Positions 1 through 14,991 of a stretch of DNA of 32,837 nt are shown here, in pieces; the first letter of the stretch is position 1, and each line of letters begins with the position of its first letter. The notes under the pieces were generated by a model. It was not told where the DNA came from. It did not search any database and saw only the letters and a list, made by a program, of their open reading frames with translations. A program made the translations under genes and the position numbers. Origin of the DNA: a virus; IMG/VR virus record IMGVR_UViG_3300024581_000808, positions 1 to 32,837 of that record. One strand, 5' to 3'.

Positions 1-99
1 ACAGTAGAAACTACACATAACATTAACGAGTTCAATATAAAAGATGTCTTTAAGCTTAAATAGTAAGTACACACCTTTATTTAATAACGATAACAGATA
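1..99. repeat. Terminal direct repeat, copy A, identical to 32739..32837. Most likely an assembly overlap of a circular or circularly permuted genome; unique length 32738 bp.
   Basis: The first 99 nt (acagtagaaactacacataac...taacgataacagata) recur exactly as the last 99 nt. The 32738 offset is confirmed by the terL ATG at 44 and again at 32782. Bases 1..63 duplicate the 3' end of ORF 32526..32801. Confidence 0.9.
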
Positions 100-1255
100 C
101 TACATTGTAACTGGAGGTCGAGGATCAGGTAAGTCTTACACTATTAATATGTTCTTACTTGCTTTAACTTATGAAGCAGGACATACTATTCTATTCACAC
201 GTTACACATTAACATCTGCTCACGTTTCAATCATTCCTGAGTTCTTAGAAAAGATAGAACAGTTAGAAAATCACAATGACTTCCACATCACAAAAGATGA
301 GATTGTAAACCTGAAGACAGGTAGTAAGATAATCTTCAAAGGGATTAAAACAAGTTCAGGTACTCAAACAGCATCTTTAAAATCATTAGCAGGTGTTACT
401 TGTTGGGTATTAGATGAAGCTGAAGAGTTAGTTGATGAAGATATATTTGATAAGATAGACTTATCTATTAGAGCAAAGAACAAGCAGAACAGAGTTATAT
501 TAGTACTCAATCCTGCAACAAAGGAACACTTTATTTATCAGAAGTTCTTTGAAAGCAAAGGAGTAGAAGCAGGTAGTAACTTAACTAAAGGAGATACAAC
601 TTACATTCACACTACTTACTTAGATAACGTAGAAAACCTTTCACAATCATTCTTAGACCAAGTAGAAGATACAAAGAAACGTAGACCTGAGAAGTATAAA
701 CACGCTATTTTAGGGGGGTGGTTAAACAGAGCCGAAGGTATTATATATACTAATTGGAATGTAGGAGAGTTCCCTAACACAAATGATACAGTATTTGGAC
801 AGGATTTTGGATTTAGTCAAGACCCTACAACATTAATAGAAACTCATATAGATACATCTAAGAAGGTTATTTATGCAAGGTTACACGTTTATAAAGCAGG
901 TTTAACTACATCAGAGATAGCACAATTAAACTATAAGTTTGCTCAAGATAGATTGATAGTTGCTGATTCAGCAGAGCCACGTTTGATAGCAGAATTAAAA
1001 GCAAAGAAACTAAACATTGTACCAACGATTAAAGGTGCAGATAGTGTTAAATATGGTATTAGTTTGATTCAGGATTACGATATGATAATAGATGAGGGTT
1101 CTATTGATTTAATCAAAGAACTAAACAATTATTGTTGGTTAGAAAAGAAGAGTGAAACTCCTATTGATAAATTCAATCACGGACTGGATGCACTACGCTA
1201 TGCAGTAGCTTATCAGTTAGCTAATCCAAACAGAGGAAACTACGCGATATGGTAG
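44..1255 (+). CDS. terL: Terminase large subunit (PBSX/XtmB-like)
   Basis: 403 aa. Walker A GGRGSGKS (res 24-31), Walker B-like VLDEAEE, and C-terminal nuclease-type acidic motifs (VADSAEP, HGLDALRYA). Across the circular junction the start overlaps ORF 32526..32801 by 20 nt. Confidence 0.9.
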   Translation: MSLSLNSKYTPLFNNDNRYYIVTGGRGSGKSYTINMFLLALTYEAGHTILFTRYTLTSAHVSIIPEFLEKIEQLENHNDFHITKDEIVNLKTGSKIIFKGIKTSSGTQTASLKSLAGVTCWVLDEAEELVDEDIFDKIDLSIRAKNKQNRVILVLNPATKEHFIYQKFFESKGVEAGSNLTKGDTTYIHTTYLDNVENLSQSFLDQVEDTKKRRPEKYKHAILGGWLNRAEGIIYTNWNVGEFPNTNDTVFGQDFGFSQDPTTLIETHIDTSKKVIYARLHVYKAGLTTSEIAQLNYKFAQDRLIVADSAEPRLIAELKAKKLNIVPTIKGADSVKYGISLIQDYDMIIDEGSIDLIKELNNYCWLEKKSETPIDKFNHGLDALRYAVAYQLANPNRGNYAIW

Positions 1256-1458
1256 AGCATATACACATAAATAAAATGATAGCATTATGCGAAAGCTATC
1301 TAAAAGATGTTAAAGGTTATCAGGGTAAGATAATATTTAATCAGACAATTACACACGCAATACAAAGACAACAATTAAAGATACAGTTTCAGTTATTAGG
1401 CGAGTTATATTCAGTAGCAAAGAAATATTATGAAGATAAAGATAAAAGTACCAAGTGA
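1249..1458 (+). CDS. Hypothetical protein (69 aa)
   Basis: ORF overlaps the terL stop by 7 nt and the next ORF by 29 nt. No recognisable motif. Confidence 0.5.
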   Translation: MVEHIHINKMIALCESYLKDVKGYQGKIIFNQTITHAIQRQQLKIQFQLLGELYSVAKKYYEDKDKSTK

Positions 1459-2107
1459 TCTAAGTGAGATTACGTTATACGATTACCAACGTTATATGAA
1501 TGTGATAGATAATTCTAATGATGAGTTATTCATTGCACAAAAGACAGTAAGTATATTTTGTAATATATCACTACAGCAAACACTACAGATAAACATAAAC
1601 GACATTTACAGCATCGTAGAACACTTAAAAGATGTATTCAATAGTAAACCATCACTACAGCAAAGAATCACGTTTAAAGGTCACGATTTAGGTTTTATTC
1701 CAAAGTTAGATGATATTAGTTTAGGAGAGTTAATTGATTTGTCTAACAGCATTAACGATGTTCAAAAGTTACATATTGCAATGGGTGTTTTATACAGACC
1801 AGTTAAAGCTAAGTTTAAAGATATGTACGAGATAGAAGATTACAATGCTGATGAAGGAATAATGGAAGTGATGAAGAGTTTACCTTTAGATGTAGTTTTT
1901 GGAGCTATGCTTTTTTTTTATCATTTAGCGAACGATTTACTAAAAGCTATTCCGAAATATTTAAAGGAGAGAGTAACGGAAATGAGTACTCACTTGAAGC
2001 ACAGTTCGGAGGTAAATGGGGTTGGTATCACGCAATCTATCGACTTGCTAACGGAGATGTTACAAGATTTAACACTATTACCAAGTTACCTGCAACACAA
2101 TGCTTAA
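1430..2107 (+). CDS. Hypothetical late protein, zero-frame product (225 aa). Tail-assembly-chaperone-like only by its frameshift architecture.
   Basis: Open frame with ATG. Contains an internal T9 run (1911..1919). An 86-nt gap to the next gene is anomalous in this compact genome. Confidence 0.6.
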   Translation: MKIKIKVPSDLSEITLYDYQRYMNVIDNSNDELFIAQKTVSIFCNISLQQTLQININDIYSIVEHLKDVFNSKPSLQQRITFKGHDLGFIPKLDDISLGELIDLSNSINDVQKLHIAMGVLYRPVKAKFKDMYEIEDYNADEGIMEVMKSLPLDVVFGAMLFFYHLANDLLKAIPKYLKERVTEMSTHLKHSSEVNGVGITQSIDLLTEMLQDLTLLPSYLQHNA

Positions 2108-2175
2108 CTATGCTTATGTACGAGAATGACAAAGCAGAAGTTGAAAAGGAAAGAATGAGTAATACAAAAAGATAA
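1430..2175 (+). CDS. Candidate -1 frameshifted isoform (163 aa zero frame + 85 aa from the -1 frame = 248 aa)
   Basis: The -1 frame has no stop from 1855 to TAA at 2173..2175. It translates as LSFSERFTKSYSEIFKGESNGNEYSLEAQFGGKWGWYHAIYRLANGDVTRFNTITKLPATQCLTMLMYENDKAEVEKERMSNTKR and ends 18 nt before the next start. Confidence 0.45.
1912..1918 (+). promoter_or_regulatory. Candidate -1 ribosomal slippery heptamer T_TTT_TTT
   Basis: Zero-frame codons CTT TTT TTT TAT (L161 F162 F163 Y164) give an X_XXY_YYZ site. After a -1 slip the next codon is TTA at 1918..1920, in a frame that stays open to 2175. Confidence 0.45.
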
Positions 2176-2180
2176 TTTCA

Positions 2181-2196
2181 AGGTTAATAAAGTATG
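2181..2196 (+). promoter_or_regulatory. Conserved pre-start motif AGGTTAATAAAGTATG (SD-like AGGT at -13)
   Basis: One of four late genes sharing AGGTT, six A/T bases, GT, then ATG at identical spacing. Confidence 0.4.
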
Positions 2197-2649
2197 GTTA
2201 ACTATTACGACATAACAACTAAAATAAGAACGTACTTTGAGAATGAAGTACTGATTAAGAAGATTACAAAAGGTGGTTTAGATGATATTGCAAACGCTAA
2301 ACGTGAAGAGTATGCTTTAGCACATTTGATAGTAAACCAATGTAATCCACAAGATAGTTCATTAGTGTATAATGTATCTGTTATTGCTATGGATATAGTT
2401 GATATAAACAAAGCTGAGACTACAGATAACTTCAGAGGTAATGATAATGAAGATGATGTCTTAAACTCGATGTTGACTGTATTGGTTAGGTTTTACGAAA
2501 GACTAAGAAGAGGAGATCTATTTAGTGATTTGTACCAAGTAGGAGCAGGAGTTACTATCGAGCCATTTACAGATAGGTTTGAAGATAAGGTTGCAGGTTG
2601 GACAATTACAATGGATATAATCGTTCCTAATGGTGTTAGTATATGTTAG
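2194..2649 (+). CDS. Hypothetical virion protein (151 aa), possibly neck or tail-completion
   Basis: Position in the late module next to a gp10-like ORF. No firm motif. Confidence 0.5.
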   Translation: MVNYYDITTKIRTYFENEVLIKKITKGGLDDIANAKREEYALAHLIVNQCNPQDSSLVYNVSVIAMDIVDINKAETTDNFRGNDNEDDVLNSMLTVLVRFYERLRRGDLFSDLYQVGAGVTIEPFTDRFEDKVAGWTITMDIIVPNGVSIC

Positions 2650-3161
2650 ACAAAGAAGAGGTACAAGAAGTAATAGATAAGTTCAGGAAGTATGTCGTAC
2701 AACAAAGTAGGTCAAACCTCACTAAACAAAAGAAGAACGCAAGTAAGAGCCTTTATAATAGCATTAAGGGTGTTTCTAAGGTTAATCCTAATTCTATTAG
2801 CTTGTACTTTGAAATGGAAGAGCATGGTATCTATCAAGATAAAGGTGTTAAAGGTAAAACAAGTTCTACTAAAGCACCTAACAGTCCTTTTAAATTTGGT
2901 TCAGGAACAGGTAAGAAAGGAGGATTAACTCAAGGAATACAAAAGTGGGTAAAACAAAAAAGGTTTCAATTTAGAGATGAGCAAGGTAGGTTTATGAGTT
3001 ACAATTCAACAGCATTTTTAATTACAAGAAGTATTTATAATAAAGGATTAAAGCCAAGTTTATTCTTTACTAAACCATTTGAGAAAGCATTTGATAGGTT
3101 ACCTGATGAATTAGTAGAAGCATACGGATTAGATATAGAAAAATTATACGTTAAGAAATGA
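2643..3161 (+). CDS. Putative HK97 gp10-like head-tail/tail-completion protein (172 aa)
   Basis: Pattern SLYNSIKG ... HGIYQDKGVKG ... KPSLFFTKPFEKAF resembles the gp10 family as I remember it. ATGA overlap with the next gene. Confidence 0.4.
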   Translation: MLDKEEVQEVIDKFRKYVVQQSRSNLTKQKKNASKSLYNSIKGVSKVNPNSISLYFEMEEHGIYQDKGVKGKTSSTKAPNSPFKFGSGTGKKGGLTQGIQKWVKQKRFQFRDEQGRFMSYNSTAFLITRSIYNKGLKPSLFFTKPFEKAFDRLPDELVEAYGLDIEKLYVKK

Positions 3162-4246
3162 TAAACATATTTACAAGAAGCCCATTTATAGTAGAGATAG
3201 ACGAAGCAGGTCAACTATCAACAACTGTTAAATTATACATCTGGAACAATGGTGCATCACAACCAACAGATCCAACTTATACATTAACTAAGTTGATTCC
3301 CAGTTCAAATGTTACTGCTACTTATTACGATGTATCAAATTACATTAGAGAGTTCATCTCATTCAATAAAGTTAATGATGGTACTTATCCATCTTTTCCT
3401 ACTAATATAGGTAACTCAGAAAGAACACAATTCACAAACGTAATAATAGAACGTTATAAAAATATAGGTGCAGGAGATGTGTTAGTAGATACAACTACTT
3501 ATTTAGCATTTGATGGTTATACACCATACGAAAATGGAAGTAATTATGATTATGGAGATATACACTTAGCAGAGGGGACTTACTATTATTACGATGATGG
3601 GCAAGGTGCATTAGGTAACTTAGAATATGATAGAGCAGTTTCAAGTGTTAGAGTGTTAGAAGATTCTTTAGTGTTAACAGCTTATTATACTAACTTAGAT
3701 ACAGCAGCAACTTATTCAGAAGCATTATTAGCAGAGCCATCTAATGTTCCATTAATCTATAAAAACTACTATGGAGATTCAGTAAGGTTAGAGATAAAAG
3801 ATGCGAGTTTAAACGTATTAGCAACTTATGTTAGTGTACCTGTTACTGATTGTAAATACACAGTGAATAGAATAGACTTTGTAAATAAATATGGAGCATA
3901 TCAAAGAGAATGGTTTTTTGGTGCATCTTATGACTATGTAGATTCTACTTCTAAGGAGTTTATGAATAAGCAATCAAGCCTATCTAACTACTCTACTAAT
4001 GAGGGACAGATGAAAGAGTTCAACATTAATGGTGTTAAACGTATCAAAGTAAATACAGGGTGGGTAGAAGAAAGCTACAAAGAAACTATTGAAGAGATGT
4101 TGATGAGCGAGAAGATACTTGTTAATGGTTACCCTGCAAAGTTAACAACAAAGAACGTAGAGAAGTACAAGAACATAAACACTAAGCAAATAAATTACGA
4201 ATTAGACTTTACATACAATTATCAGTTAATTAATTCAGTAAGTTAA
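3158..4246 (+). CDS. Virion structural protein (362 aa), tail or baseplate candidate
   Basis: Y/N/T/G-rich, beta-type composition. Coupled to its neighbours by ATGA and TAATG overlaps. Confidence 0.5.
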   Translation: MINIFTRSPFIVEIDEAGQLSTTVKLYIWNNGASQPTDPTYTLTKLIPSSNVTATYYDVSNYIREFISFNKVNDGTYPSFPTNIGNSERTQFTNVIIERYKNIGAGDVLVDTTTYLAFDGYTPYENGSNYDYGDIHLAEGTYYYYDDGQGALGNLEYDRAVSSVRVLEDSLVLTAYYTNLDTAATYSEALLAEPSNVPLIYKNYYGDSVRLEIKDASLNVLATYVSVPVTDCKYTVNRIDFVNKYGAYQREWFFGASYDYVDSTSKEFMNKQSSLSNYSTNEGQMKEFNINGVKRIKVNTGWVEESYKETIEEMLMSEKILVNGYPAKLTTKNVEKYKNINTKQINYELDFTYNYQLINSVS

Positions 4247-6594
4247 TGAGGAAAGTTAGTATATATATAGAAGAAACAAGGGAGAGTAATAACTATTCAG
4301 AACTGGAGTTGTTTAAAGATGAAGAAATCAACATTAATTTATCAGTACAGAACGTTAAAGATATCTCAAAAGTATTCACAGACTTCACGCAATCTTTTAC
4401 AGTTCCTGCATCTTCTGTTAACAATAGTTTGTTAAGACATTACTATGAGAATGCAGTTGATTTAGATTTAGCTGAATGGGATAATAGATTAAGAATAAAT
4501 GCCTATATTGAGATTAACAGAATACCATTTAGGAATGGTAAAGTAGAGATTGAGAAAGCTAACATTGTTAATGGCAGAGTTGAAAGTTACACCATCACTT
4601 TTTATGGTAACTTAGTTAACTTAAAAGAATTGATTGGAGATGCTTTATTAAGTGAGTTAGACCTAAGTAATATAAGCAATCCCTATAGTTACTCAGATGT
4701 AAAAGAAAGGGTGTTTAATTACACTACAGATTACGATGTACGTTACCCACTTATAACATCAGATAGAATTTGGACTTATGGAGATAGTACAAGTACAGAT
4801 GTTAGTATAAATGGTGGTGCTATAAACTACACAGAGTTGTTCCCTGCTGTTAAGGTTGCTAAAATATTAGAATCAATAGAGAATACTTATGGTATTACAT
4901 TTAGTGGTTTATTCTTAACTGATAAAAGATTTACAGATTTATTCCTATGGTGTAAAAATTCAGAGTCAAAAAGTAATACATTACAAAATCAAAAGATAGA
5001 CTTCTTTAGTAAGAGTGGAGATACAGATGTATTTAATTTAGACTTAAATACTGATATTATTTCTATTAGAGGTGCGAGTTTAACAAATCTTAATAGGTTA
5101 GTATTAAATTTAGCTGTAACATCAATTTCAAGTACAACAACACCTTTTACAGTAGAAGTTTACGATAAAGGTGTATTATTAAAAACTATTACAAGAACTG
5201 GAGCAGTTGCTTTTAACGTTATTGAAGAATGGATTACAGCAACAACAGAAAAAGATATATCTTTAAGGGTACGTTCAGACGCTACTATTGATATTCAATT
5301 CTCTTTAGATTATAAACTTTTTGAGTGGTTTGATGGAACTACACAAATAGCAGAGCAAGAGAGTGCAGATGCTAAACAATTATCTGTGACTAATACAGTT
5401 GATTTATCTTTATTGATGCCTGAAATAAAAGTTACTGATTTCTTAAGTGGTGTATTAAATCAATTTAACTTAACATTAACTCCAACATCTTATAATAGTT
5501 TTCAGTTAGAGCCTTTAGAATGGTGGTATCAAAAAGGTGCAGTAGTAGATATTACTAACTATGTAGATGAATCGAGTGTAGATATTAAAAAAGTTCCATT
5601 ATATAAAAGATTATCATTTGAACACGAGCAAAGTCAATCAGTTTTAAATAGACAATTTTTAGCAGACAACAGGGTTGAATATGGAGACTTCTCTGAATCA
5701 TTTAGTTATAATGGTGATGAATTTAGTATTAAATTACCATTTGAAAATCTAAAATTTGAAAAGTTTAGTGGTACAGATTTAACAGTTGCTTACTCACTAA
5801 AAGAGAAAGACTTTACTACATACACGCCAAAACCTACATTACTTTATATGTACGAAAATAAAGCTGTTAATGGTAGTGGTTTAAAGATGACTGATGGAAT
5901 AGGTACTTTTGACACATCAACTACTTATATGCCTTTTGGACAAGATGTATATTACAACAATAATGAATACTCTCTAAACTTTAGTGTAGAAACATCAACA
6001 TTATTAGAGAAACCAATAGGTCGAACAACTTACGATGTTTATTATAGACCTTATATAGAGAATTTATTTAGCTATAAGAATAGGTTAGTAAGTGTTAAAG
6101 CTATATTTCCCTTATCATTAATTACAGGTTTAAAGTTAAATGATAGATTAATAATTAGAGATAAACGTTACACTATAAACGATATAGCTACAAACCTAAC
6201 AACAGGGGAGGTTCAACTCGAATTACTGAACGATTTCAGAAAGGTTGCTAATGACAGTCCTGAAGTGTTTGATGGAACAGTTACAAGTGTAGAGTTGCCA
6301 GTTTTACCTTTGAATCAAGCTGCTACTGTAAACTTATCGACTACTACAGCAGGTGTTACTTTTAGTCAAACTTCATTTGAAACTGAATCTTATGTTACGA
6401 TTACTATACCAACTAATCCAACAACAAGAACAGATTTAATTTCTGAAGATGCTTTATACGATATTATTTCTGAAGATGGTTTTGAGATTATAAACGAGGG
6501 AGCAGATTTTAATGTTATTCCTATAGAGTATGACCATACGTTACAAAATGGAGATAGTGAGGTTTATTATACATACATAGTACAAGAAATATGA
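4246..6594 (+). CDS. Large virion structural protein (782 aa), tail tip or baseplate candidate
   Basis: Largest ORF in the window. Sits in the late module just upstream of the tape-measure-like gene. Confidence 0.5.
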   Translation: MRKVSIYIEETRESNNYSELELFKDEEININLSVQNVKDISKVFTDFTQSFTVPASSVNNSLLRHYYENAVDLDLAEWDNRLRINAYIEINRIPFRNGKVEIEKANIVNGRVESYTITFYGNLVNLKELIGDALLSELDLSNISNPYSYSDVKERVFNYTTDYDVRYPLITSDRIWTYGDSTSTDVSINGGAINYTELFPAVKVAKILESIENTYGITFSGLFLTDKRFTDLFLWCKNSESKSNTLQNQKIDFFSKSGDTDVFNLDLNTDIISIRGASLTNLNRLVLNLAVTSISSTTTPFTVEVYDKGVLLKTITRTGAVAFNVIEEWITATTEKDISLRVRSDATIDIQFSLDYKLFEWFDGTTQIAEQESADAKQLSVTNTVDLSLLMPEIKVTDFLSGVLNQFNLTLTPTSYNSFQLEPLEWWYQKGAVVDITNYVDESSVDIKKVPLYKRLSFEHEQSQSVLNRQFLADNRVEYGDFSESFSYNGDEFSIKLPFENLKFEKFSGTDLTVAYSLKEKDFTTYTPKPTLLYMYENKAVNGSGLKMTDGIGTFDTSTTYMPFGQDVYYNNNEYSLNFSVETSTLLEKPIGRTTYDVYYRPYIENLFSYKNRLVSVKAIFPLSLITGLKLNDRLIIRDKRYTINDIATNLTTGEVQLELLNDFRKVANDSPEVFDGTVTSVELPVLPLNQAATVNLSTTTAGVTFSQTSFETESYVTITIPTNPTTRTDLISEDALYDIISEDGFEIINEGADFNVIPIEYDHTLQNGDSEVYYTYIVQEI

Positions 6595-6731
6595 TACAAT
6601 TAATTATACAATTATTAGCATTAGATGAGTTTTATGGTGTATCTAAGAATATAGATATAGCAAAAGGTGTTAATGCTTTACCTAAAACAAAAGATATTAT
6701 AAAAACTATTAAAAGAAGAACAGCCAAATGA
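6591..6731 (+). CDS. Small hypothetical protein (46 aa), below the ORF-track cutoff
   Basis: MIQLIIQLLALDEFYGVSKNIDIAKGVNALPKTKDIIKTIKRRTAK. It exactly fills the 6594..6728 gap, with ATGA overlaps at both ends (6591..6594 and 6728..6731). Confidence 0.6.
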   Translation: MIQLIIQLLALDEFYGVSKNIDIAKGVNALPKTKDIIKTIKRRTAK

Positions 6732-8626
6732 ATGAAAGAGTAGTATTTATTAATGTAAAGGATAATGCTGATGAAGCTAAAGGTAATTTTGATGAGTTAA
6801 ATGATGAAATTAAAGATACTGAAAAGACCACAGAGGGTGTAGCAGATAATACAGCTAAAATAGAAAAGTCAAGTAAAGGTGCTACAAAAGGTTTAAAAGG
6901 TGTAGGTAGTGCTGTTAAAGGATTAGGTTTAGCATTTAAAGCGTTAGGTATAGGTTTAATAATCTCAGCATTTGCAGTATTAAAAGATATATTTACACAA
7001 AATCAAAAGGTAGCAGATACTTTAAACACAGTATTTGAGACAATGTCTATCATATTTAATGAGGTTACAAGGGTAGTAGTTTCTGTATATGAAAGTGTAA
7101 GAGAAGCAACTGGGGGATTTGATGCTTTAGGTAAAGTAATGGGTGGTTTATTAGACTTAGTAATAGCACCATTTAAAGCTACTTTTTTTGGTATTAAGTT
7201 AGCTATTCAGGCAGTTCAGTTAGCTTGGGAGCAATCAGTATTTGGAGATGGAGACCCTAAAACAATAAAGAATTTAAGAAAAGAAATAGAACTAACAAGA
7301 CAGGATTTAGTTGGTGTAGGTCAAGATGTAATTAAGGCAGGAGGTCAAATAGTAGATAATTTTGTAGAAGCAGTTGGAGAGGTTGGTAGTATAGTTACAG
7401 AAACAGCTAAAGGCATTACTGATATATCTGTTAAAGCAGCATTTGAACAAGCTAAATTGAATGTAGAAATACAAAACCAAGCGAAGATAGCAGCAGCACA
7501 GCAATCATTACTAATAGAGAAGTACGATAGACAAGCTGAAAAGTTAAGACAAATAAGAGACGAAGAACGTAACACTATTGATGAAAGGATCAAAGCTAAT
7601 GATGATTTAAGAGAGGTATTAGATAGTCAAGAGAAAGCTATGTTAAGAGCAGCAGATATGCAAGTAAAAGCTGCAAGGTTTGAGTTCGAAAAAAACAAAT
7701 CAATAGAGAATAGAATCGCATTAATAGAAGCACAATCTAATAGAGAGGGTGTGTTAGCACAAATCGAGGGTTTTAGGTCTGAACAGTTAGCAAATGATTT
7801 AGCTTTAGATAAGGAAAAGATTGAACTTGTAAATGCAAAAATAGATGCTGAACAAGAACTATCTATGAATGAAAAGAGATTTGTAGCTGAAAGGATTGAA
7901 GATGAGCAAATGAGATTAGATGAACTAATCAGAATAACTCAAGAAGAAAAGCTATTAGAAGAGGAAAGGTTACAGAATAAAATAAACCAATATAAGCAAG
8001 GTACTCAGGCAAGATTAGATGCTGAGATAGAATATTTAACAACTAAGCAAGAATTAGACCAACAGCTAATAGAATTAGAAACTCAAAAAGCAAAGAAACA
8101 AGAGCAGATTGAGATGGATTTAGCTGAAGCGAAGAAGAAATTAACTTATGATTCTTTGAGTGCTGTTAATGATTTACTTGGTGCATTTGCAGGGGAAAAC
8201 GAGAAACAACAAAAGAGAGCATTTGAGATACAGAAAGCAGTAAGTATAGCACAAACTATTATAGATACTTATAAGGGCGCACAGGCTATTTTTGCAAGTG
8301 CTGCTGCTAATCCAAGCACAGTATTATTTCCTGCACAGCCATTTATCACAGCAGGTTTAGCAATCACAGCAGGTTTAGCAAACGTCAAAAGAATTGCATC
8401 AACTGAATTTAATTCGAGTGGTGGTGGTGTAGGTAGCCCATCAGTTCCAAATGTAGCAGGTAACACTTCTACACAACAACTAAGCACACCTAATTTTAAC
8501 GTGGTAGGTGCTACAGGAATATCACAAACTGAAGAACTACAACCAGTCAAAGCTTATGTAGTAAGTGGAGATGTAACAACAGCACAAGCATTAGATCGTA
8601 ATAGAATACAAAACGCAACATTTTAA
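6728..8626 (+). CDS. Tape-measure-like protein (632 aa). Alternative: internal or ejection protein.
   Basis: N-terminal hydrophobic segment GLGLAFKALGIGLIISAFAVL, a long E/K/Q/L-rich coiled-coil core, and a C-terminal Gly/Ala hydrophobic region. Confidence 0.5.
   Translation: MNERVVFINVKDNADEAKGNFDELNDEIKDTEKTTEGVADNTAKIEKSSKGATKGLKGVGSAVKGLGLAFKALGIGLIISAFAVLKDIFTQNQKVADTLNTVFETMSIIFNEVTRVVVSVYESVREATGGFDALGKVMGGLLDLVIAPFKATFFGIKLAIQAVQLAWEQSVFGDGDPKTIKNLRKEIELTRQDLVGVGQDVIKAGGQIVDNFVEAVGEVGSIVTETAKGITDISVKAAFEQAKLNVEIQNQAKIAAAQQSLLIEKYDRQAEKLRQIRDEERNTIDERIKANDDLREVLDSQEKAMLRAADMQVKAARFEFEKNKSIENRIALIEAQSNREGVLAQIEGFRSEQLANDLALDKEKIELVNAKIDAEQELSMNEKRFVAERIEDEQMRLDELIRITQEEKLLEEERLQNKINQYKQGTQARLDAEIEYLTTKQELDQQLIELETQKAKKQEQIEMDLAEAKKKLTYDSLSAVNDLLGAFAGENEKQQKRAFEIQKAVSIAQTIIDTYKGAQAIFASAAANPSTVLFPAQPFITAGLAITAGLANVKRIASTEFNSSGGGVGSPSVPNVAGNTSTQQLSTPNFNVVGATGISQTEELQPVKAYVVSGDVTTAQALDRNRIQNATF
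8345..8380 (+). repeat. Perfect 18-bp tandem duplication (atcacagcaggtttagca x2) inside the tape-measure-like gene
   Basis: 8345..8362 equals 8363..8380. In frame it encodes ITAGLA-ITAGLA. Confidence 0.9.
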
Positions 8627-8633
8627 TAAAATA

Positions 8634-8649
8634 AGGTTATAATAGTATG
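8634..8649 (+). promoter_or_regulatory. Conserved pre-start motif AGGTTATAATAGTATG
   Basis: Same spacing as the copies at 2181, 12277 and 14556. Confidence 0.4.
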
Positions 8650-9564
8650 GAAAAACTACAAAACATTGAACTAACAATAGGAGATGAACAAGAAGATGGA
8701 GTATTCGCTGTATCACTTGTTGAAAAACCTGCAATAGAAAAGGACTTTATTGCATTATCTAAAGAAGAAATTAAGCTAAAAGTTATTGATGAAGATAAAC
8801 GAATAGTTGTAGGTTTTGCATTAGTTCCTGATAAGAAGATTTATAGAAGAATTAAAGATAAGGAATTTAATGTGTTCTTTTCAAAAGATACTGTTAGAAA
8901 AGTTTCTGAGTTATATATGAAGAACTTAAACCTTAATAAATTCACAGTTGAACACGAAAAGAATGTTACAGGAGTGAATGTTATCGAATCTTGGATAGTT
9001 GAAGATCCTAAAAACGATAAAGCTAATTTATACAACTTAGAGCCTAAAGGTGGCGAATGGGTAATGATGTCAAAGATATACAACGATGATGTATGGAATG
9101 ATATTAAGAACGGAGACTACAAAGGATATTCTATTGAGGGTAAATTTGATGGTTTACAAGATTTAGAAATGAGCGATGAAGTAGAATTAAAAAGCTATAA
9201 CGACTATCCAAAAGCAGCAAGTAATAATGCAAAGACAGCATTAAGATATGCAGAAGAGAATGGGTGGGGTTCTTGTGGTACTTCAGTAGGTAAACAAAGA
9301 GCAAACCAATTAGCTAAAGGGGAAGCGATTTCAGAAGAAACTATTTCAAGAATGGCATCATTTGCAAGGCATAAACAAAACTCAAAAAAAGATTTAGGAG
9401 ATGGTTGTGGACGTTTGATGTGGTTAGCTTGGGGAGGCGATGCAGGAATTAATTGGGCATCTCGTAAGTTAGAGCAAATCAAGAAAGAGAAAACAAAGTT
9501 AAGTGAAGATAGTGAGCGTGAAGAAACTATTGAAGCAATTAAAGACTTTTTAAAAAGTATATGA
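8647..9564 (+). CDS. Putative XkdF-like prohead protease with a C-terminal W/G-rich domain (305 aa)
   Basis: The N-terminal half (VSLVEKPAIEKDF, VVGFALVPDK, TVEHEK, IESWIV, GYSIEGKF) resembles XkdF-type phage proteases as I recall them. The C-terminal LMWLAWGGDAGINWA domain is a pattern common at the ends of phage head-maturation proteins. Confidence 0.5.
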   Translation: MEKLQNIELTIGDEQEDGVFAVSLVEKPAIEKDFIALSKEEIKLKVIDEDKRIVVGFALVPDKKIYRRIKDKEFNVFFSKDTVRKVSELYMKNLNLNKFTVEHEKNVTGVNVIESWIVEDPKNDKANLYNLEPKGGEWVMMSKIYNDDVWNDIKNGDYKGYSIEGKFDGLQDLEMSDEVELKSYNDYPKAASNNAKTALRYAEENGWGSCGTSVGKQRANQLAKGEAISEETISRMASFARHKQNSKKDLGDGCGRLMWLAWGGDAGINWASRKLEQIKKEKTKLSEDSEREETIEAIKDFLKSI

Positions 9565-10352
9565 GTAAATTTAACTTTACACAAAGGTATTTAGATAGTG
9601 CATCTATAGATGATACAGATGGTGTTATTTTAGATGTAGTTGGTAGTGATGTACCTAAAAGAGTACCTTATAATAACTTTATTACTTCAGGTAGTGGATA
9701 TTGTGGTTACTCACATACAGGTGCATTTGCAGGTAAACCATTATCAAACAATTATGTATGGGAAGCAGGGTCTGGTATTAATTACACTCAAACCGATGTA
9801 GATAACGCATTGTACAAAGTTCTATCATTAGATAATGCAGTTCATTTAGCAGTAGATAATCCTTATTGGACTACACCTGATGTTACAGGAGAGCCTAACG
9901 TAGGTTTATTTAATGGATATGCTTTACCTCCAAATGTAGACAGTTTATTTGATTACACTTATGACTTTGATACTGAATATCCATCTTCTACAGGTACAGG
10001 ATTTGAGGGTTCAACAGGTAGGATAAAATTGAATGATTTGCAGTATGGAGACCAATTAAGAGTAAGGTTTGATTTTAACGTTATTCCACAAATAGCAAAT
10101 ACAACGATTGAACCTGCTTTATGGTACAGTAATAGAGATGATAATGATAACATCACATTTACTTTTCCTTTAACAACATCTCCTGTATTTTTTGGTGGTG
10201 GTACTGTAGGAAACACTTACTTAAATAGGGTAGAAATATCTGCGTGGGTAATAAGTAATGAAGATGTAAATGCTTTAACACTACCTGCAATTAAATCAGA
10301 TAATCCTATAATTATACAACCTTTAGGGTTGTTAGTAACTGTAATTAGATAG
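9561..10352 (+). CDS. Hypothetical virion protein (263 aa)
   Basis: ATGA overlap with the upstream gene. G/Y/N/T-rich composition. Confidence 0.5.
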   Translation: MSKFNFTQRYLDSASIDDTDGVILDVVGSDVPKRVPYNNFITSGSGYCGYSHTGAFAGKPLSNNYVWEAGSGINYTQTDVDNALYKVLSLDNAVHLAVDNPYWTTPDVTGEPNVGLFNGYALPPNVDSLFDYTYDFDTEYPSSTGTGFEGSTGRIKLNDLQYGDQLRVRFDFNVIPQIANTTIEPALWYSNRDDNDNITFTFPLTTSPVFFGGGTVGNTYLNRVEISAWVISNEDVNALTLPAIKSDNPIIIQPLGLLVTVIR

Positions 10353-10353
10353 T

Positions 10354-11616
10354 ATGAGTATAAAGATAAAAAGAAACGAGGCAGGGAATTGTATTACATT
10401 TGAGGGTAGTTCAAATCCTGTGTATTGGAATAGCTGTCTAAGTGGAGAGATAGATTCATCAGATAATACTTTAGTCAATGTAATAAATGATATTAGGACT
10501 GCACAAAGTGGTACACCATTTTATGAGTTTTTCAGAATACCTTACACAGATTTTTTAGATGCAGATGGTAATTCATTTTCTAATGCTCAAGATTGTGTTG
10601 ACTACATTAATCAAGAAGCTAATGTTTTAGAAGCTACATTAGCAGGTTTTTTAAATTTAGAAAATGTTTCAGGTACAAATGATAAAGTTGATTTAACAAG
10701 TGTAACAAGTCAAGAGAAAATTGGAGGAGGTATAAAATTTACAGCAGGTAGTAACATTCAATGTGGACAGCCTGTATTTTACAATTATAGTTCTACAGGT
10801 GTAGTTACAGCAGTATCAGCAGGTACTTTACCATTACAACACGATTACATAGGAATAGCTTTAAAAACAGTTACAGCAGGTGAATCAGTAAACGTATTAA
10901 CTAAAGGTTTAGTAACAGCAAGAAGAGATACAACTTATTTAACATCAGCAGAAACTGTAATTCTAAACAATACATCAAATAACACTACAAGGAACTTGAC
11001 TAACTCTACAACTTTTGTAGATAGTGGAGATACAGGTGGGGATTACACGAGTAACGAAAACTATAGTATCACTTTTGATGCACAAGCAGGTTACACAGTA
11101 GATATGATAGTTAATGATTTTCAGTTTGAACATACAACGTATAGAATGTACGACAGGTTAGGTATTCAAGGGTCTAATGATGGTGTAAACTTTAATAATT
11201 TAAGTGTACAATGGTTACAAAAATCAGCTACATCTACACCTACTTGGAGTACATCGTTTTATGGTAGTAATGCTTGGAATAGTACAGGTGCTGATAATGG
11301 TTATATTTTACCTAAAGATACATCTAGAGCAATTTTATTATCAAGTGGTACGTTCCCTGTAACAGTTAATACAGGTTATAGATATATAAGATTTTATTTT
11401 AGGTCAGATAGTAGTGCTAATGATGATGGATGGGACATTACATTACAACCTAACACACCTTATTCTTCAAACGTAGAATCAGTTGCAGAGGGAACTACGT
11501 TATATTTAGATAGTACAGATTTCACAAAAGTAACCACAGATGATACATCTCAAATAGTTGTAGGTTATTGTGCCTATAATGATGCTGCGAATGATAGCAT
11601 ATTTTTAAGAATATAA
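10354..11616 (+). CDS. Putative tail fibre or receptor-binding protein (420 aa)
   Basis: N/S/T/G-rich, beta-type sequence. Contains a jelly-roll/CUB-like stretch YSITFDAQAGYTVDMIVNDFQFEHTTYRMYDRLGIQGSNDG. Confidence 0.4.
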   Translation: MSIKIKRNEAGNCITFEGSSNPVYWNSCLSGEIDSSDNTLVNVINDIRTAQSGTPFYEFFRIPYTDFLDADGNSFSNAQDCVDYINQEANVLEATLAGFLNLENVSGTNDKVDLTSVTSQEKIGGGIKFTAGSNIQCGQPVFYNYSSTGVVTAVSAGTLPLQHDYIGIALKTVTAGESVNVLTKGLVTARRDTTYLTSAETVILNNTSNNTTRNLTNSTTFVDSGDTGGDYTSNENYSITFDAQAGYTVDMIVNDFQFEHTTYRMYDRLGIQGSNDGVNFNNLSVQWLQKSATSTPTWSTSFYGSNAWNSTGADNGYILPKDTSRAILLSSGTFPVTVNTGYRYIRFYFRSDSSANDDGWDITLQPNTPYSSNVESVAEGTTLYLDSTDFTKVTTDDTSQIVVGYCAYNDAANDSIFLRI

Positions 11617-11627
11617 ATTAATAAAAA

Positions 11628-12071
11628 ATGAGAATACAAGATTTAACAGAATTAACAAGTTTAGCAGATACTGATTTAATAGTAGTAGATGACTATCAAA
11701 GTGCAGGAGTTTACAAAACTAAAAAAATAACGGTTGCTAATTTAAAGAGTGAGTTAGGTTTACCAAGTAGGGTATTATATGCAAATCTTAATCAGTCAGG
11801 AACTGATGCGCCTACTATGACAGTAATTAAAAATACTTTAGGTTACACACCTACGTTTACTTATGATGGTGTTGGTGATTATACTATGAGTTTTAATGAA
11901 GCTATAAGTGCATCAAATGCTATTTTAACAGCAGGTTATAATATATACCCTTACATTACAGCTATACGATTATCGGGTGGTGGTGTTAAGATAGACACAT
12001 ACAGACGTTCTTCGGGTACAGCAGACGGAATATTAGTTAACGCATCAATTAAATTAGAAATATATGAATAA
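11628..12071 (+). CDS. Virion protein with a tail-fibre-type N-terminal anchor motif (147 aa)
   Basis: The N-terminus MRIQDLTELTSLADTDLIVVDDYQSAGVYKTKKITVANL parallels that of ORF 17548..18036 and the common phage fibre/spike N-terminal pattern. Confidence 0.45.
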   Translation: MRIQDLTELTSLADTDLIVVDDYQSAGVYKTKKITVANLKSELGLPSRVLYANLNQSGTDAPTMTVIKNTLGYTPTFTYDGVGDYTMSFNEAISASNAILTAGYNIYPYITAIRLSGGGVKIDTYRRSSGTADGILVNASIKLEIYE

Positions 12072-12252
12072 AAAAGTAAGCCCAAAAGGAGGGAAAAGAG
12101 GGTGCTTGTGTAAAGATGGTAAGTACTCTAAAAAGTGTTGTGATGGAGAGTTAAAATCTCAAGGAATAGGCAACATTACAAGTACAGGATTAGAGACTGT
12201 GACACAAACAGAAGTAAACGGAACTCGCTCAAGAACAAGGGTTTCAGGTTAG
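12064..12252 (+). CDS. Small basic Cys-rich protein (62 aa)
   Basis: KGGKRGCLCKDGKYSKKCCDGELK. Overlaps the upstream gene by 8 nt. Confidence 0.5.
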   Translation: MNKKVSPKGGKRGCLCKDGKYSKKCCDGELKSQGIGNITSTGLETVTQTEVNGTRSRTRVSG

Positions 12253-12276
12253 AAATTACAACAAAAATTAATAAAT

Positions 12277-12292
12277 AGGTTATATAAGTATG
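12277..12292 (+). promoter_or_regulatory. Conserved pre-start motif AGGTTATATAAGTATG
   Basis: Same spacing as the copies at 2181, 8634 and 14556. Confidence 0.4.
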
Positions 12293-12892
12293 AAAAAGGA
12301 AGTAATAGAAGCAATTAACACATTAAAAGTTTTCTTAGGAATGGAAAAACAAGAAGAGGTTGTTAAGTTAGCAGAGCAAATGAAGTTAGACAACGGTACT
12401 ATTATCGAAGTTGAATCTTTAGAAGCAGGTGCTGCTGTAGCAATCGTAAATGAAGATGAGCGTATTCCTTTACCAAAAGGAGAGTATTCATTAGAAGATG
12501 GTCGCGTTTTAGTGGCTAATGAAGATGGTGTTCTTTCTGAGGTTAAAGAGATGGAAGCTGAAAAAGAAGAAGAAAAAGAAATGAAAGAAGTAGAAGAAGA
12601 AGCTCCAATGATGAGTGAAGAGCCTGTTAAAGAGGCTAAGAAAGTAGTAGAATCTACTGTTAAAGAAACTTACTTTGAAGAGATTGAAAAGTTAAAAGCT
12701 GAAAACGAAGAGTTAAAAGCTAAAATAACTGAACTTTCAAAAGTAGAAGAAGTTAAAGAAGAAGTTGAACTTTCTGAAGAGCCTAAACCAATCAAAGCTA
12801 ATCCTGAAAACAAAACAGAAAAGGAAGCTATCAGATTTGGTAAACAAGGTAAATCAAAGATTTCATCAATTTTAGAAAAAGTATATAATTAA
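12290..12892 (+). CDS. Putative scaffolding protein (200 aa)
   Basis: Very acidic, E/K-rich helical sequence lying immediately upstream of the major capsid gene. Confidence 0.6.
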   Translation: MKKEVIEAINTLKVFLGMEKQEEVVKLAEQMKLDNGTIIEVESLEAGAAVAIVNEDERIPLPKGEYSLEDGRVLVANEDGVLSEVKEMEAEKEEEKEMKEVEEEAPMMSEEPVKEAKKVVESTVKETYFEEIEKLKAENEELKAKITELSKVEEVKEEVELSEEPKPIKANPENKTEKEAIRFGKQGKSKISSILEKVYN

Positions 12893-12905
12893 TAATTAAA
12901 TAAAA

Positions 12906-13859
12906 ATGGCAACAACAACATCAATTACAACATCTTATTCAGGTGAACATAGTGGAAAATGGATTTCTGCTGCTTTATTATCAGGTGTAACTTTATCAAA
13001 TGAGTTAATCACAATTATGCCTAATGTTAAATTTAAATCAGTAGTATCTAACTTAGTTAGTGCATCAGGTTTAGCAGACGCATCTTGTGACTTCACAGCT
13101 ACAGGAACAGTTACTTTAACTGAAAGAATTTTAGAGCCTAAGTCTTTACAAGTAAATAAGCAACTTTGTAAAGCTGATTTCAGAGACACTTGGCAAGCAA
13201 TCGAAATGGGTTATTCTGCTCACGATGTTTTACCTAAGTCTTTCGCTGATTATTTATTAGCACACCAAGTAGAGCAAGTTGCTGCTGACATCGAACAGCA
13301 CATTTGGAATGGAGATGCAGGTAACTCAGGAGAGTTCAACGGATTTATGACATTGTTAACTACAGATGCTGATTTACCAGCTGCTCAAGAGGTTGCAGGA
13401 ACTACTTTAACTGCTGCTAACATTATCACTGAAATGGGTAAAGTTGCTGATGCTATCCCTTCAAGATTATACGGTAAAGAGGGATTAAGAATTTACGTTT
13501 CTCAAAACGCTATGAGATTATACGTTAGAGCATTAGGAGGATTCGGAACTTCAGGATTAGGTGCTAACGGTGTTGATGGTAAAGGTACTTTATGGTATCA
13601 AGGTGGTGAATTAATGTTTGACGGTATCCCAGTAGTAGTAGCTAATGGATTGACTGCTGACCAAATGTTAGCTTCAACTAAAGAGAACTTATTCTTTGGA
13701 ACTGGTTTACTTTCGGATCAAAATGAGTGCAAATTGCTAGATTTAAGTGATATTGACGGTTCAGAAAATTGTCGTATCATTATGAGAATGACAGCAGGTG
13801 TTCAGTACGGAAATGTTTCTGATATCGTAACTTACGGAATCACTAACTCTGCTAACTAA
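12906..13859 (+). CDS. Major capsid protein (HK97-fold type, 317 aa)
   Basis: Follows the scaffold-like gene, has a typical size, and is followed by a strong intrinsic terminator. The A/G/T-rich composition is typical of capsid proteins. Confidence 0.7.
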   Translation: MATTTSITTSYSGEHSGKWISAALLSGVTLSNELITIMPNVKFKSVVSNLVSASGLADASCDFTATGTVTLTERILEPKSLQVNKQLCKADFRDTWQAIEMGYSAHDVLPKSFADYLLAHQVEQVAADIEQHIWNGDAGNSGEFNGFMTLLTTDADLPAAQEVAGTTLTAANIITEMGKVADAIPSRLYGKEGLRIYVSQNAMRLYVRALGGFGTSGLGANGVDGKGTLWYQGGELMFDGIPVVVANGLTADQMLASTKENLFFGTGLLSDQNECKLLDLSDIDGSENCRIIMRMTAGVQYGNVSDIVTYGITNSAN

Positions 13860-13882
13860 TATTAATAATAATTAATTGAAGA

Positions 13883-13910
13883 GGGGAGGTAAAGTGCCTT
13901 CCCTTTTTTT
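13883..13910 (+). terminator. Intrinsic terminator after the capsid gene
   Basis: Stem GGGGAGG / CCTTCCC (one G-U pair), 7-nt loop, then T7. Confidence 0.8.
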
Positions 13911-13934
13911 GTATAACTTTAAAAATATTTAAAA

Positions 13935-14480
13935 ATGGCTTGTTTATTATCTATGGGTAGAGCTGAATCGTGTAAAGACTCAGTAGGTGGATTAAAGAAC
14001 ATCTACTTTGCAAACTTTGACATTGAAGCTTCTGATATTACCTACGATGCAACAGATACTGATTTGATTACAGCAATTACAGGTATTTCAAACCTTTACA
14101 AATTTGAATTGAAAGGTAACTCTACATTCGTTCAAAATATTAACTCATCAAGAGAAAATGGTACTACTTTCTTTGAGCAAGTATTATCATTAGAATTGAA
14201 GAAGCAAGATGTTGCTACAACAAAAGAAATTAAAATACTTTCTTACGGACGTCCTCACGTTATCGTGGAAGGGAATGATGGTCAATATTTCATTGCAGGA
14301 TTGTTAAGAGGAATGGATTTATCGGCAGGATCTATAGAGTCAGGAGCATCACTTTCTGATTATAATGGTTATAAAATTACCCTAACTGGGCAAGAAAAAA
14401 CACCTGCAAATCACTTAGACTGTACAACTGAAGCTGCTTTAATCACTTTGTTTGATACAGCAACAATCGTAACTTCATAA
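13935..14480 (+). CDS. Abundant virion protein candidate (181 aa), possibly the major tail protein
   Basis: A monocistronic unit bracketed by two intrinsic terminators directly after the capsid gene. Confidence 0.4.
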   Translation: MACLLSMGRAESCKDSVGGLKNIYFANFDIEASDITYDATDTDLITAITGISNLYKFELKGNSTFVQNINSSRENGTTFFEQVLSLELKKQDVATTKEIKILSYGRPHVIVEGNDGQYFIAGLLRGMDLSAGSIESGASLSDYNGYKITLTGQEKTPANHLDCTTEAALITLFDTATIVTS

Positions 14481-14500
14481 TTACTCATAATTGTTTGTTT

Positions 14501-14530
14501 AGCCCTCACTTTAGTTAGTGGGGGTTTTTT
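14501..14530 (+). terminator. Intrinsic terminator
   Basis: AGCCCTCAC-tttagtta-GTGGGGGT followed by T6. Confidence 0.8.
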
Positions 14531-14555
14531 ATTTAAAAACAAAATAGCAACATTT

Positions 14556-14571
14556 AGGTTTATATAGTATG
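14556..14571 (+). promoter_or_regulatory. Conserved pre-start motif AGGTTTATATAGTATG
   Basis: Same spacing as the copies at 2181, 8634 and 12277. Confidence 0.4.
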
Positions 14572-14988
14572 ATAGTATTAACAACATCTACAAGTTTACA
14601 AAGTTTTAATTTTATTCCAAGAACAGGAACGCAACCAACTGTTATGTTAATTACAGATGAAGAAACTAATACAACTGAAAATGTAACCATTTCAAGCTAT
14701 GTAGTAGATACTTACTTTGATACTATTACAGCTACTTTTAACTTAAAAGAGGGTAGGTATTACACAGTAAGATTGCAAAACTTTGATAGTGATGAGTATT
14801 TACAAAGTGATGATTTCAGTTTCTTATTGACAAGTCAAAATGATAGAATAGGAATTGATGGTTACGATGGTACAACTGAGGTTATGTATGTAGGTAAGAT
14901 ATTCTGTACAGACCAAACTACAGATTATTCAGTTAATAGTGGGCAATACCAACAGAAGAACAGCACAAATGACTTTTTATATTTATAG
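14569..14988 (+). CDS. Hypothetical virion protein (139 aa)
   Basis: ORF between a terminator and the portal gene. No motif recognised. Confidence 0.5.
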   Translation: MIVLTTSTSLQSFNFIPRTGTQPTVMLITDEETNTTENVTISSYVVDTYFDTITATFNLKEGRYYTVRLQNFDSDEYLQSDDFSFLLTSQNDRIGIDGYDGTTEVMYVGKIFCTDQTTDYSVNSGQYQQKNSTNDFLYL

Positions 14989-14991
14989 AAT

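Follow-up and report, generated by a model that had tools for sequence, protein, structure and literature searches.

A gene probably decoded in two frames at a conserved T9 run in phages of marine Bacteroidota

The window analyzed here is the whole 32,837-nucleotide stretch (positions 1 to 32,837) of the IMG/VR virus record IMGVR_UViG_3300024581_000808. On its plus strand, an open reading frame (ORF) at 1430..2107 encodes a 225-amino acid protein and contains an uninterrupted run of nine T residues (T9) at 1911..1919, over which the -1 frame is also open. Does this run mark a gene that is decoded in two ways, or has a homopolymer been miscounted? An earlier note on this DNA had proposed a programmed -1 frameshift with the architecture of the G/GT tail-assembly chaperones of long-tailed phages, and had offered as its alternative a true T10 encoding a single 248-amino acid protein. 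On the comparative evidence below, we consider it very probable that 1430..2175 is one gene decoded two ways at a conserved T9, with two predicted functional products. Standard decoding would give the 225-residue protein, a common N-terminal domain followed by a 62-residue zero-frame tail. A net -1 shift would give a 248-residue protein, the same domain joined to a conserved C-terminal helical domain with a KWGWY motif.

The features that the earlier note had read from this locus proved correct. The T9 run lies inside a coding sequence and is the longest T run of the window. Read from the sequence, the zero frame over the run is CTT TTT TTT TAT (phase C_TT T_TT T_TT T), and the heptamer T_TTT_TTT at 1912..1918 stands in the X_XXY_YYZ phase. 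According to the ORF listing and its translation, the zero-frame product comprises an acidic alpha/beta N-domain (residues 1-163) and the 62-residue tail (FFYHLANDLLKAIPKYL...NGVGITQSIDLL...), and its zero-frame peptide is LFFYHLANDLLK. The -1 frame is stop-free from 1855 to a TAA at 2173..2175. Its translated continuation past the slip site (1918..2175, plus strand) consists of 85 codons and the TAA, and encodes a helix extension (LSFSERFTKSYSEIF), a disordered linker and the C-terminal helical domain. The 163 common residues thus make 248 with the 85 codons of the -1 frame and 225 with the 62 codons of the zero frame, and the junction peptide of the fused product is GAMLFFLSFSER, as had been claimed. 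Both frames are predicted to be read over 1919..2107 on the plus strand, a dual-coding overlap supported by the open-frame statistics and fourfold-site identities given below. The next gene starts at 2194, so that the 86-nucleotide gap after the zero-frame stop closes to 18 nucleotides after the -1 stop.

Nor does either strand of the 32.8-kb window contain another A or T run of nine or more. Dinucleotide-preserving shuffles had a mean of 6.6 runs of the A9/T9 type against the single one seen, and the genome seems to avoid slippage-prone runs everywhere but at the recoding site. At least one such run was present in 97 of 100 shuffles (A makes up 39% of the bases); a lone T9 is therefore not improbable by chance, and the case for more than chance rests on comparative evidence, not on the rarity of the run.

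Conservation of the run and of the need for a -1 shift

Among cultured phages, a tblastn search with the fused 248-amino acid protein matched only the Nonlabens (Persicivirga) phages P12024L and P12024S of the genus Inhavirus, at 32% amino acid identity and in two pieces. No other cultured phage was found at E<=1 with either the window's or the Nonlabens fused protein, and for this reason no function could be obtained from annotated relatives. The homologous Nonlabens loci are L001 (3001..3695, equivalent to NC_018272.1 23946..24640) and L002 (NC_018271.1 23136..23830). In both phages the DNA at the join is CTT TTT TTT TAT CAT TTA G, with a T9 and a phase identical to those of the window. RefSeq holds P12024L gp40 (175 amino acids) and gp41 (55 amino acids, in the -1 frame of gp40) as separate hypothetical proteins; the P12024S counterparts gp38 and gp39 are treated likewise, and the recoding is unannotated in these records. 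A near-identity DNA search with positions 1-6600 of the window gave no match among 50,697 phage records.

The metagenomic relatives were far more numerous. A -1 shift is required between the N- and C-terminal parts in all 78 related IMG/VR loci, most of which carry T9 and the rest T10. The phase of the run is identical in 79 of 81 related run-bearing loci, the exceptions being L077 and L078; in the other six of the eight T10 loci among the 78, the extra T is 5', converting the preceding codon to TTT. An exact-pattern scan for the downstream context AYCRTTTAGGGA recovered T9 at no fewer than 120 loci, T10 at 22 and a broken T8 at one. When loci with this context were analyzed, 108 of 119 T9 loci and 21 of 21 T10 loci needed the -1 shift; ten of the 11 remaining T9 loci were undeterminable and one was odd. 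A second clade, in which the run is followed by GTGGAATTTAG (T10+G), comprised at least 120 loci, all of those listed being exactly T10, and 113 of 120 demonstrably need the shift (seven undeterminable). T9 and the -1 need were likewise found in 13 of 13 Inhavirus-type loci. Not one in-frame gene was present among the more than 300 IMG/VR contigs of these sets, and in the frame-breaking loci examined the run was T9 or T10, never under nine.

The run is also constrained at the codon level. TTC never encodes phenylalanine inside it, although TTC makes up 22% of the phenylalanine codons elsewhere in these genes and is used in 16 of 75 loci for an invariant phenylalanine (GF[IH]P motif). In a 129-nucleotide alignment of 30 diverse loci, the T9 was the sole fully invariant block, save for a TTT four bases downstream. 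By sequence comparison, we confirmed that net -1 recoding at the T9 is conserved and real, and is not a homopolymer miscall.

At the protein level, a search returned 420 homologues, most of them ORFs of 216-236 amino acids covering the first two thirds of the query and a minority single ORFs of 245-260 amino acids with 96-100% query coverage. A profile search of 1.84 billion cluster representatives found 4063 family members at E<=1e-3, and among the best 150 representatives about 135 had the split architecture and about 15 were full length.

The fused product has the properties of a coherent protein. A -1 ORF of 80-91 codons is present in all complete loci, Inhavirus-type loci included. The fused window protein aligned end to end with 30 single-ORF homologues of 227-262 amino acids (P0061, N-terminally truncated, has 199), and the alignment ran straight through the junction in 27 of them, P0049, P0056 and P0057 being unmatched or gapped there; the junction FFLSFSERFTKSYSEIF lies against the single-ORF consensus FFL.FR.R.V..Y.ELF. 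In an AlphaFold2 model of the 248 residues (predicted local distance difference test, pLDDT, 87; predicted template modeling score 0.80), an alpha/beta N-domain is followed by a helix (153-173) uninterrupted across junction residue 163, a disordered linker (179-188) and a helical C-domain (189-247). The calculated isoelectric points are 4.9 (acidic) for the common N-domain and 8.0 (basic) for the -1 tail. A Foldseek search of BFVD returned 44 uncharacterized phage proteins, including single ORFs of full length (258-267 amino acids). Separately, contig L086, which encodes P0049, keeps T9 and regains the KWGWY frame through a second indel some 15 codons downstream; the linker is therefore readable in either frame.

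Selection on both frames and run-length variants

The zero frame was compared across relatives as well. In 76 complete loci it is stop-free for 52-87 codons past the run, and the -1 frame for 82-91. The same relative frame contains 0.12 stops per codon in the N-terminal part against zero in the first 52 codons past the run. When the -1 codons were resampled synonymously, the median first stop fell at seven codons, and the per-locus probability of so long an open zero frame had a median of 0.015 and a maximum of 0.094. Fourfold third-position identity, counted in the -1 frame for pairs below 55% amino acid identity, was 0.58 in the overlap, 0.38 in the N-terminal part and 0.44 past the overlap; the pairs are non-independent and these figures descriptive. 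Conservation of the zero-frame NGxGI motif is partly a shadow of KWGWY in the other frame. Despite this shadow, the open frame and the constrained synonymous sites show, at the level of sequence, that the zero-frame tail matters. Both frames are thus conserved in relatives of the window's clade with suppressed synonymous change, and because the zero-frame tail is also under selection, two products are predicted from one gene. The proposal in the earlier note of two products sharing 163 N-terminal residues is in keeping with this result.

In the Inhavirus sister clade, the zero frame stops 16-26 codons past the run. The early end indicates that the long alternative tail belongs to the window's clade, the T9 and the -1 domain being older. 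It would also suit an account in which only the 248-residue protein is functional, the T9 being a tolerated mutation rescued by slippage and the zero-frame product waste, as would the correspondence of the fused form to the full-length single ORFs of distant structural homologues. However, the frame-breaking state is kept down to 32% amino acid identity though a one-base insertion would repair it, which argues that the unshifted product or the isoform ratio is selected, and in the window's clade the zero-frame tail is both open and constrained in sequence. We regard such a correction site as unlikely.

The third frame behaves differently. The +1 frame ends after two codons in most loci (TTTAG or TTTAA); in the window, ATCATTTAG just 3' of the run (1920..1928, plus strand) supplies a +1 TAG two codons past it. 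From U8 or U11 transcripts, or after a +1 slip, a truncated N-domain of 165 amino acids would result, and database proteins of 163-165 amino acids ending in LFFII or LFFTI exist (P0024 and P0085). The +1 stop may be a by-product of conserved Phe-Arg/Lys codons in the -1 frame and a Leu codon in the zero frame.

Against recoding, about 10% of the database homologues are in frame, with T7, T10 or T11, and some genuine DNA-level variation in run length may exist. Six in-frame contigs were inspected. Three (L083, L085 and L087) are polished nanopore or low-coverage long-read assemblies, L084 is a Logan assembly, L229 is a 1.3-kb JGI metagenome contig with T11, and L230 is an NCBI metagenome contig with T10. 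All six retain the intact alternative ORF (55-64 codons), and appear to be either errors in run length or rare variants of the T9/T10 genotype.

These contigs bear on two further explanations. If the window's T9 were a sequencing or assembly artefact, the true sequence would be T10, the gene would encode only the 248-residue protein and the 225-residue ORF would be unreal. Long homopolymers are error-prone, and both the in-frame versions in public assemblies and the roughly 15 full-length proteins among the best 150 representatives could be read in this way. However, two cultured phages and more than 300 IMG/VR contigs from many metagenomes are frame-breaking, errors cannot explain the 52-87 open zero-frame codons or the constrained synonymous sites of the overlap, and it is the in-frame contigs that are long-read or polished long-read assemblies in three of six cases while keeping the alternative ORF in all six. 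The miscalled T10, which the earlier note had entertained, is refuted by these data; an artefact of this kind is barely credible. The other explanation is phase variation, in which replication slippage would swap T9 and T10 genomes, each genotype would make one isoform and the population would supply both. Homopolymers are known contingency loci, and run-length variants with both ORFs intact include the JGI T11 and NCBI T10 metagenome contigs. Against this, none of the more than 300 IMG/VR loci has an in-frame genotype, from which we argue that a frame-breaking length is the only fit genomic state; moreover, an assembly gene needing both isoforms in each infected cell cannot depend on co-infection, and both frames are under selection inside the same genomes. 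We therefore consider phase variation very unlikely, and return to recoding of a single genotype as the preferred explanation.

One candidate line of argument was dropped. In-frame 'FFFVEFR' proteins (T11+G) had been taken as a clade with a fused default form that would favor transcriptional slippage, but all 120 listed IMG/VR loci of that clade are exactly T10, and 113 of them demonstrably need the -1 shift.

Mechanism of the shift

The sequences around the run were searched for elements that could stimulate a ribosomal shift. Folding of the 45 nucleotides upstream and the 60 nucleotides downstream was indistinguishable from that of shuffles (mean z 0.06 and 0.34), and RNAalifold on 30 loci returned 0 consensus pairs. 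Neither an Rfam element nor a terminator-like hairpin before the run was found, and the upstream codons vary across related loci, with no constant GGAGG or other Shine-Dalgarno-like motif. The locus thus has the X_XXY_YYZ heptamer in phase and lacks a conserved stimulatory element. What is present in every frame-breaking locus examined is a homopolymer of at least nine T, the length of the RNA:DNA hybrid.

In vivo, efficient slippage by bacterial RNA polymerase occurs at runs of nine A or T, the polymerase having a hybrid of 9-10 bp, and U_UUU_UUU is far less shift-prone than A_AAA_AAG on Escherichia coli ribosomes (PMC5009743). Runs of 9 A/T nucleotides are put to productive use in Thermus dnaX and in several Shigella genes for type III secretion (PMC5009743). 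With no conserved stimulator and a run that always reaches nine, slippage by RNA polymerase is no less likely than a ribosomal shift; the run length, together with a third-frame stop two codons off in most loci, favors a sizeable transcriptional contribution. Two considerations temper this preference. The purity of the T9 alone cannot separate a transcriptional from a ribosomal mechanism, and the two T's flanking the heptamer could also stem from an upstream NTT codon for a hydrophobic residue and from a TTR leucine codon in the -1 frame. Nor is a stimulator obligatory, as lambda G/GT shifts without one. From these sequence features, a mainly transcriptional shift seems slightly better than an even bet and a mainly ribosomal one slightly worse. 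Of the programmed -1 frameshift put forward in the earlier note, the net -1 recoding therefore holds, given the conserved run, phase and -1 need; its ribosomal nature is not established for a homopolymer without a stimulator.

In the model that we propose, RNA polymerase would add one U while the whole 9-bp hybrid is rU:dA, and/or two tRNA-Phe would slip back on U_UUU_UUU. Both products are likely to be needed: the N-domain may bind one partner, and the alternative C-termini may give different second interactions, with the run fixing the ratio of the two isoforms. A more ambitious version can be put forward tentatively, at distinctly less than an even chance. Here the T9 would be a programmed RNA-polymerase slippage site, long kept in marine flavobacterial phages of a very large family, which numbers some 4000 clusters at 50% identity, and setting the ratio of three products (225 amino acids; 248 from U10; 165 from U8 or U11), with about 60 dual-read codons, in an unrecognized morphogenetic family.

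Genomic context, function and comparison with known recoding systems

The window begins with a terminase large-subunit gene (44..1255; Pfam Terminase_3 and Terminase_3C). The recoded gene opens the tail-type structural block that follows, and a block consisting of the recoded gene and then ORFs of 151, 172, 362, 782 and 632 amino acids is shared with the Nonlabens phages. The 632-residue ORF (6728..8626) is the only tape-measure-like one, with weak matches to tape-measure PHROGs (E 1e-11 to 1e-7), and genes beyond it encode an XkdF-type protease, a capsid-like protein and a portal. The recoded protein itself matches PHROG 32199 (function unknown; E=4e-21). It has no match in Pfam or NCBIfam, Pfam giving none for 31 family members even at E<=1; a sequence profile search of the PDB with the family returned nothing, and the best Foldseek hit in the PDB had E=0.9. 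In a search for the tube gene, profiles of the 151-, 172- and 362-residue proteins had no match among PDB sequences with E under 0.27. An AlphaFold2 model of the 362-residue protein (pLDDT 78) found only generic Ig/FN3-like matches in Foldseek, and the tube gene was not identified.

By analogy with G/GT, a morphogenetic or chaperone function is the likeliest single role for the recoded gene, though its probability falls somewhat short of even. In its favor, no other gene of the structural block has a G/GT-like overlap, the N-domain is acidic, and 2397 of 2476 annotated actinophage frameshift genes (97%) are tail chaperones (PMC10274946). Three points weigh against it: the tape-measure-like gene does not adjoin the recoded gene but lies four genes (4.5 kb) downstream; no tail-chaperone family was matched in Pfam, NCBIfam, the PDB or Foldseek; and the Nonlabens phages have a small pair, gp48/gp49, directly before their tape-measure-like gene, which is absent from the window. 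In P12024L, gp47-gp49 (L351, 29868..31058) are three small genes just upstream of the tape-measure-like gp50 and have no homologues in the window. There, gp49 (46 amino acids) overlaps gp48 at an ATGA and occupies its -1 frame, and the two could be a canonical chaperone-like pair.

Several other features of the region were noted. The structural gene order (44..16743, all on the plus strand) is unusual: terminase, recoded and tail-type genes, tape-measure-like gene, protease, capsid-like gene, portal. Between the terminase gene and the recoded gene, a 69-residue ORF (1249..1458) overlaps the end of the former by 7 nucleotides and the start of the latter by 29, and has a weak PHROG match (E=0.007). 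The -1 frame is stop-free over 6561..6731, 44 codons beyond the stop of the 782-residue gene and into the 133-nucleotide gap before the tape-measure-like gene. Nonlabens gp01 (349 amino acids; PHROG 24921) matches two window ORFs, the XkdF-type protease at 8647..9564 and, C-terminally, a scaffold-like ORF at 12290..12892, which are separated by ORFs of 263, 420 and 147 amino acids; this arrangement is a split or rearrangement of a fused gene.

No article turned up by full-text literature searches describes this recoding, which appears to be both unannotated in RefSeq and unreported in the searchable literature. Gene callers split or truncate the recoded gene in every genome, leaving thousands of truncated entries in protein databases; with the site recognized, the annotation of these very abundant marine Bacteroidota phages can be put right. 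The cultured host-phage pair offers a natural system for polymerase versus ribosomal slippage as the means of fixing an isoform ratio, in hosts without Shine-Dalgarno pairing, and the long, well-sampled dual-coding region is useful for the study of overlapping-frame evolution. If the protein is a tail chaperone, it would represent a new chaperone family outside the canonical gene order; if polymerase slippage is the true mechanism, tailed-phage virion assembly would gain its first widespread, conserved case of transcriptional slippage.

The closest known architecture is the -1 frameshift of the lambda-type G/GT chaperones (Levin 1993; Xu, Hendrix and Duda 2004, 2013, 2014, as summarized in PMC5009743). 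In both systems, one gene of the morphogenesis region gives two products with a common, acidic N-terminal part through a -1 shift at a slippery run without an obvious RNA stimulator, and the architecture is kept while the sequence diverges. A further likeness is confined to the Inhavirus clade, in which the zero frame ends 16-26 codons past the site, as G does. Unlike G/GT, the window family showed no sequence or fold similarity to chaperones, and its gene lies near the terminase, four genes before the tape-measure-like gene, instead of between the tube and tape-measure genes. Its site is an invariant homopolymer of at least nine T, whereas G/GT sites are varied heptamers, and the zero frame of the window's clade has its own selected tail of 52-87 codons, about 60 of them overlapping the -1 frame. 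The G/GT architecture suggested by the earlier note thus stands as an analogy of two frames and a -1 shift; membership in the chaperone family is unsupported, given the lack of similarity in Pfam, NCBIfam, the PDB and Foldseek and the position away from the tape-measure-like gene.

Programmed transcriptional slippage at 9-nucleotide A/T runs is established for Thermus thermophilus dnaX and for Shigella mxiE, spa13, spa33 and mxiA (PMC5009743). As in those genes, the window has a homopolymer of at least nine, the length of the RNA:DNA hybrid, with no further signal needed, and a one-base insertion opens the other frame; a nearby stop in the third frame is shared with Thermus dnaX. Those are, however, cellular genes, whereas the window gene belongs to a phage and slippage is a candidate mechanism only. 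In Thermus dnaX, moreover, the long product is in frame, while in the window the domain-complete product needs the shift. The chaperone genes of phages P2 (E/E+E') and Mu reportedly frameshift on T-rich heptamers, and so resemble the window in a -1 shift on a T run within a phage morphogenesis gene. They are said to differ from it in using heptamers such as T_TTT_TTG, in adjoining the tape-measure gene and in encoding members of recognized chaperone families.

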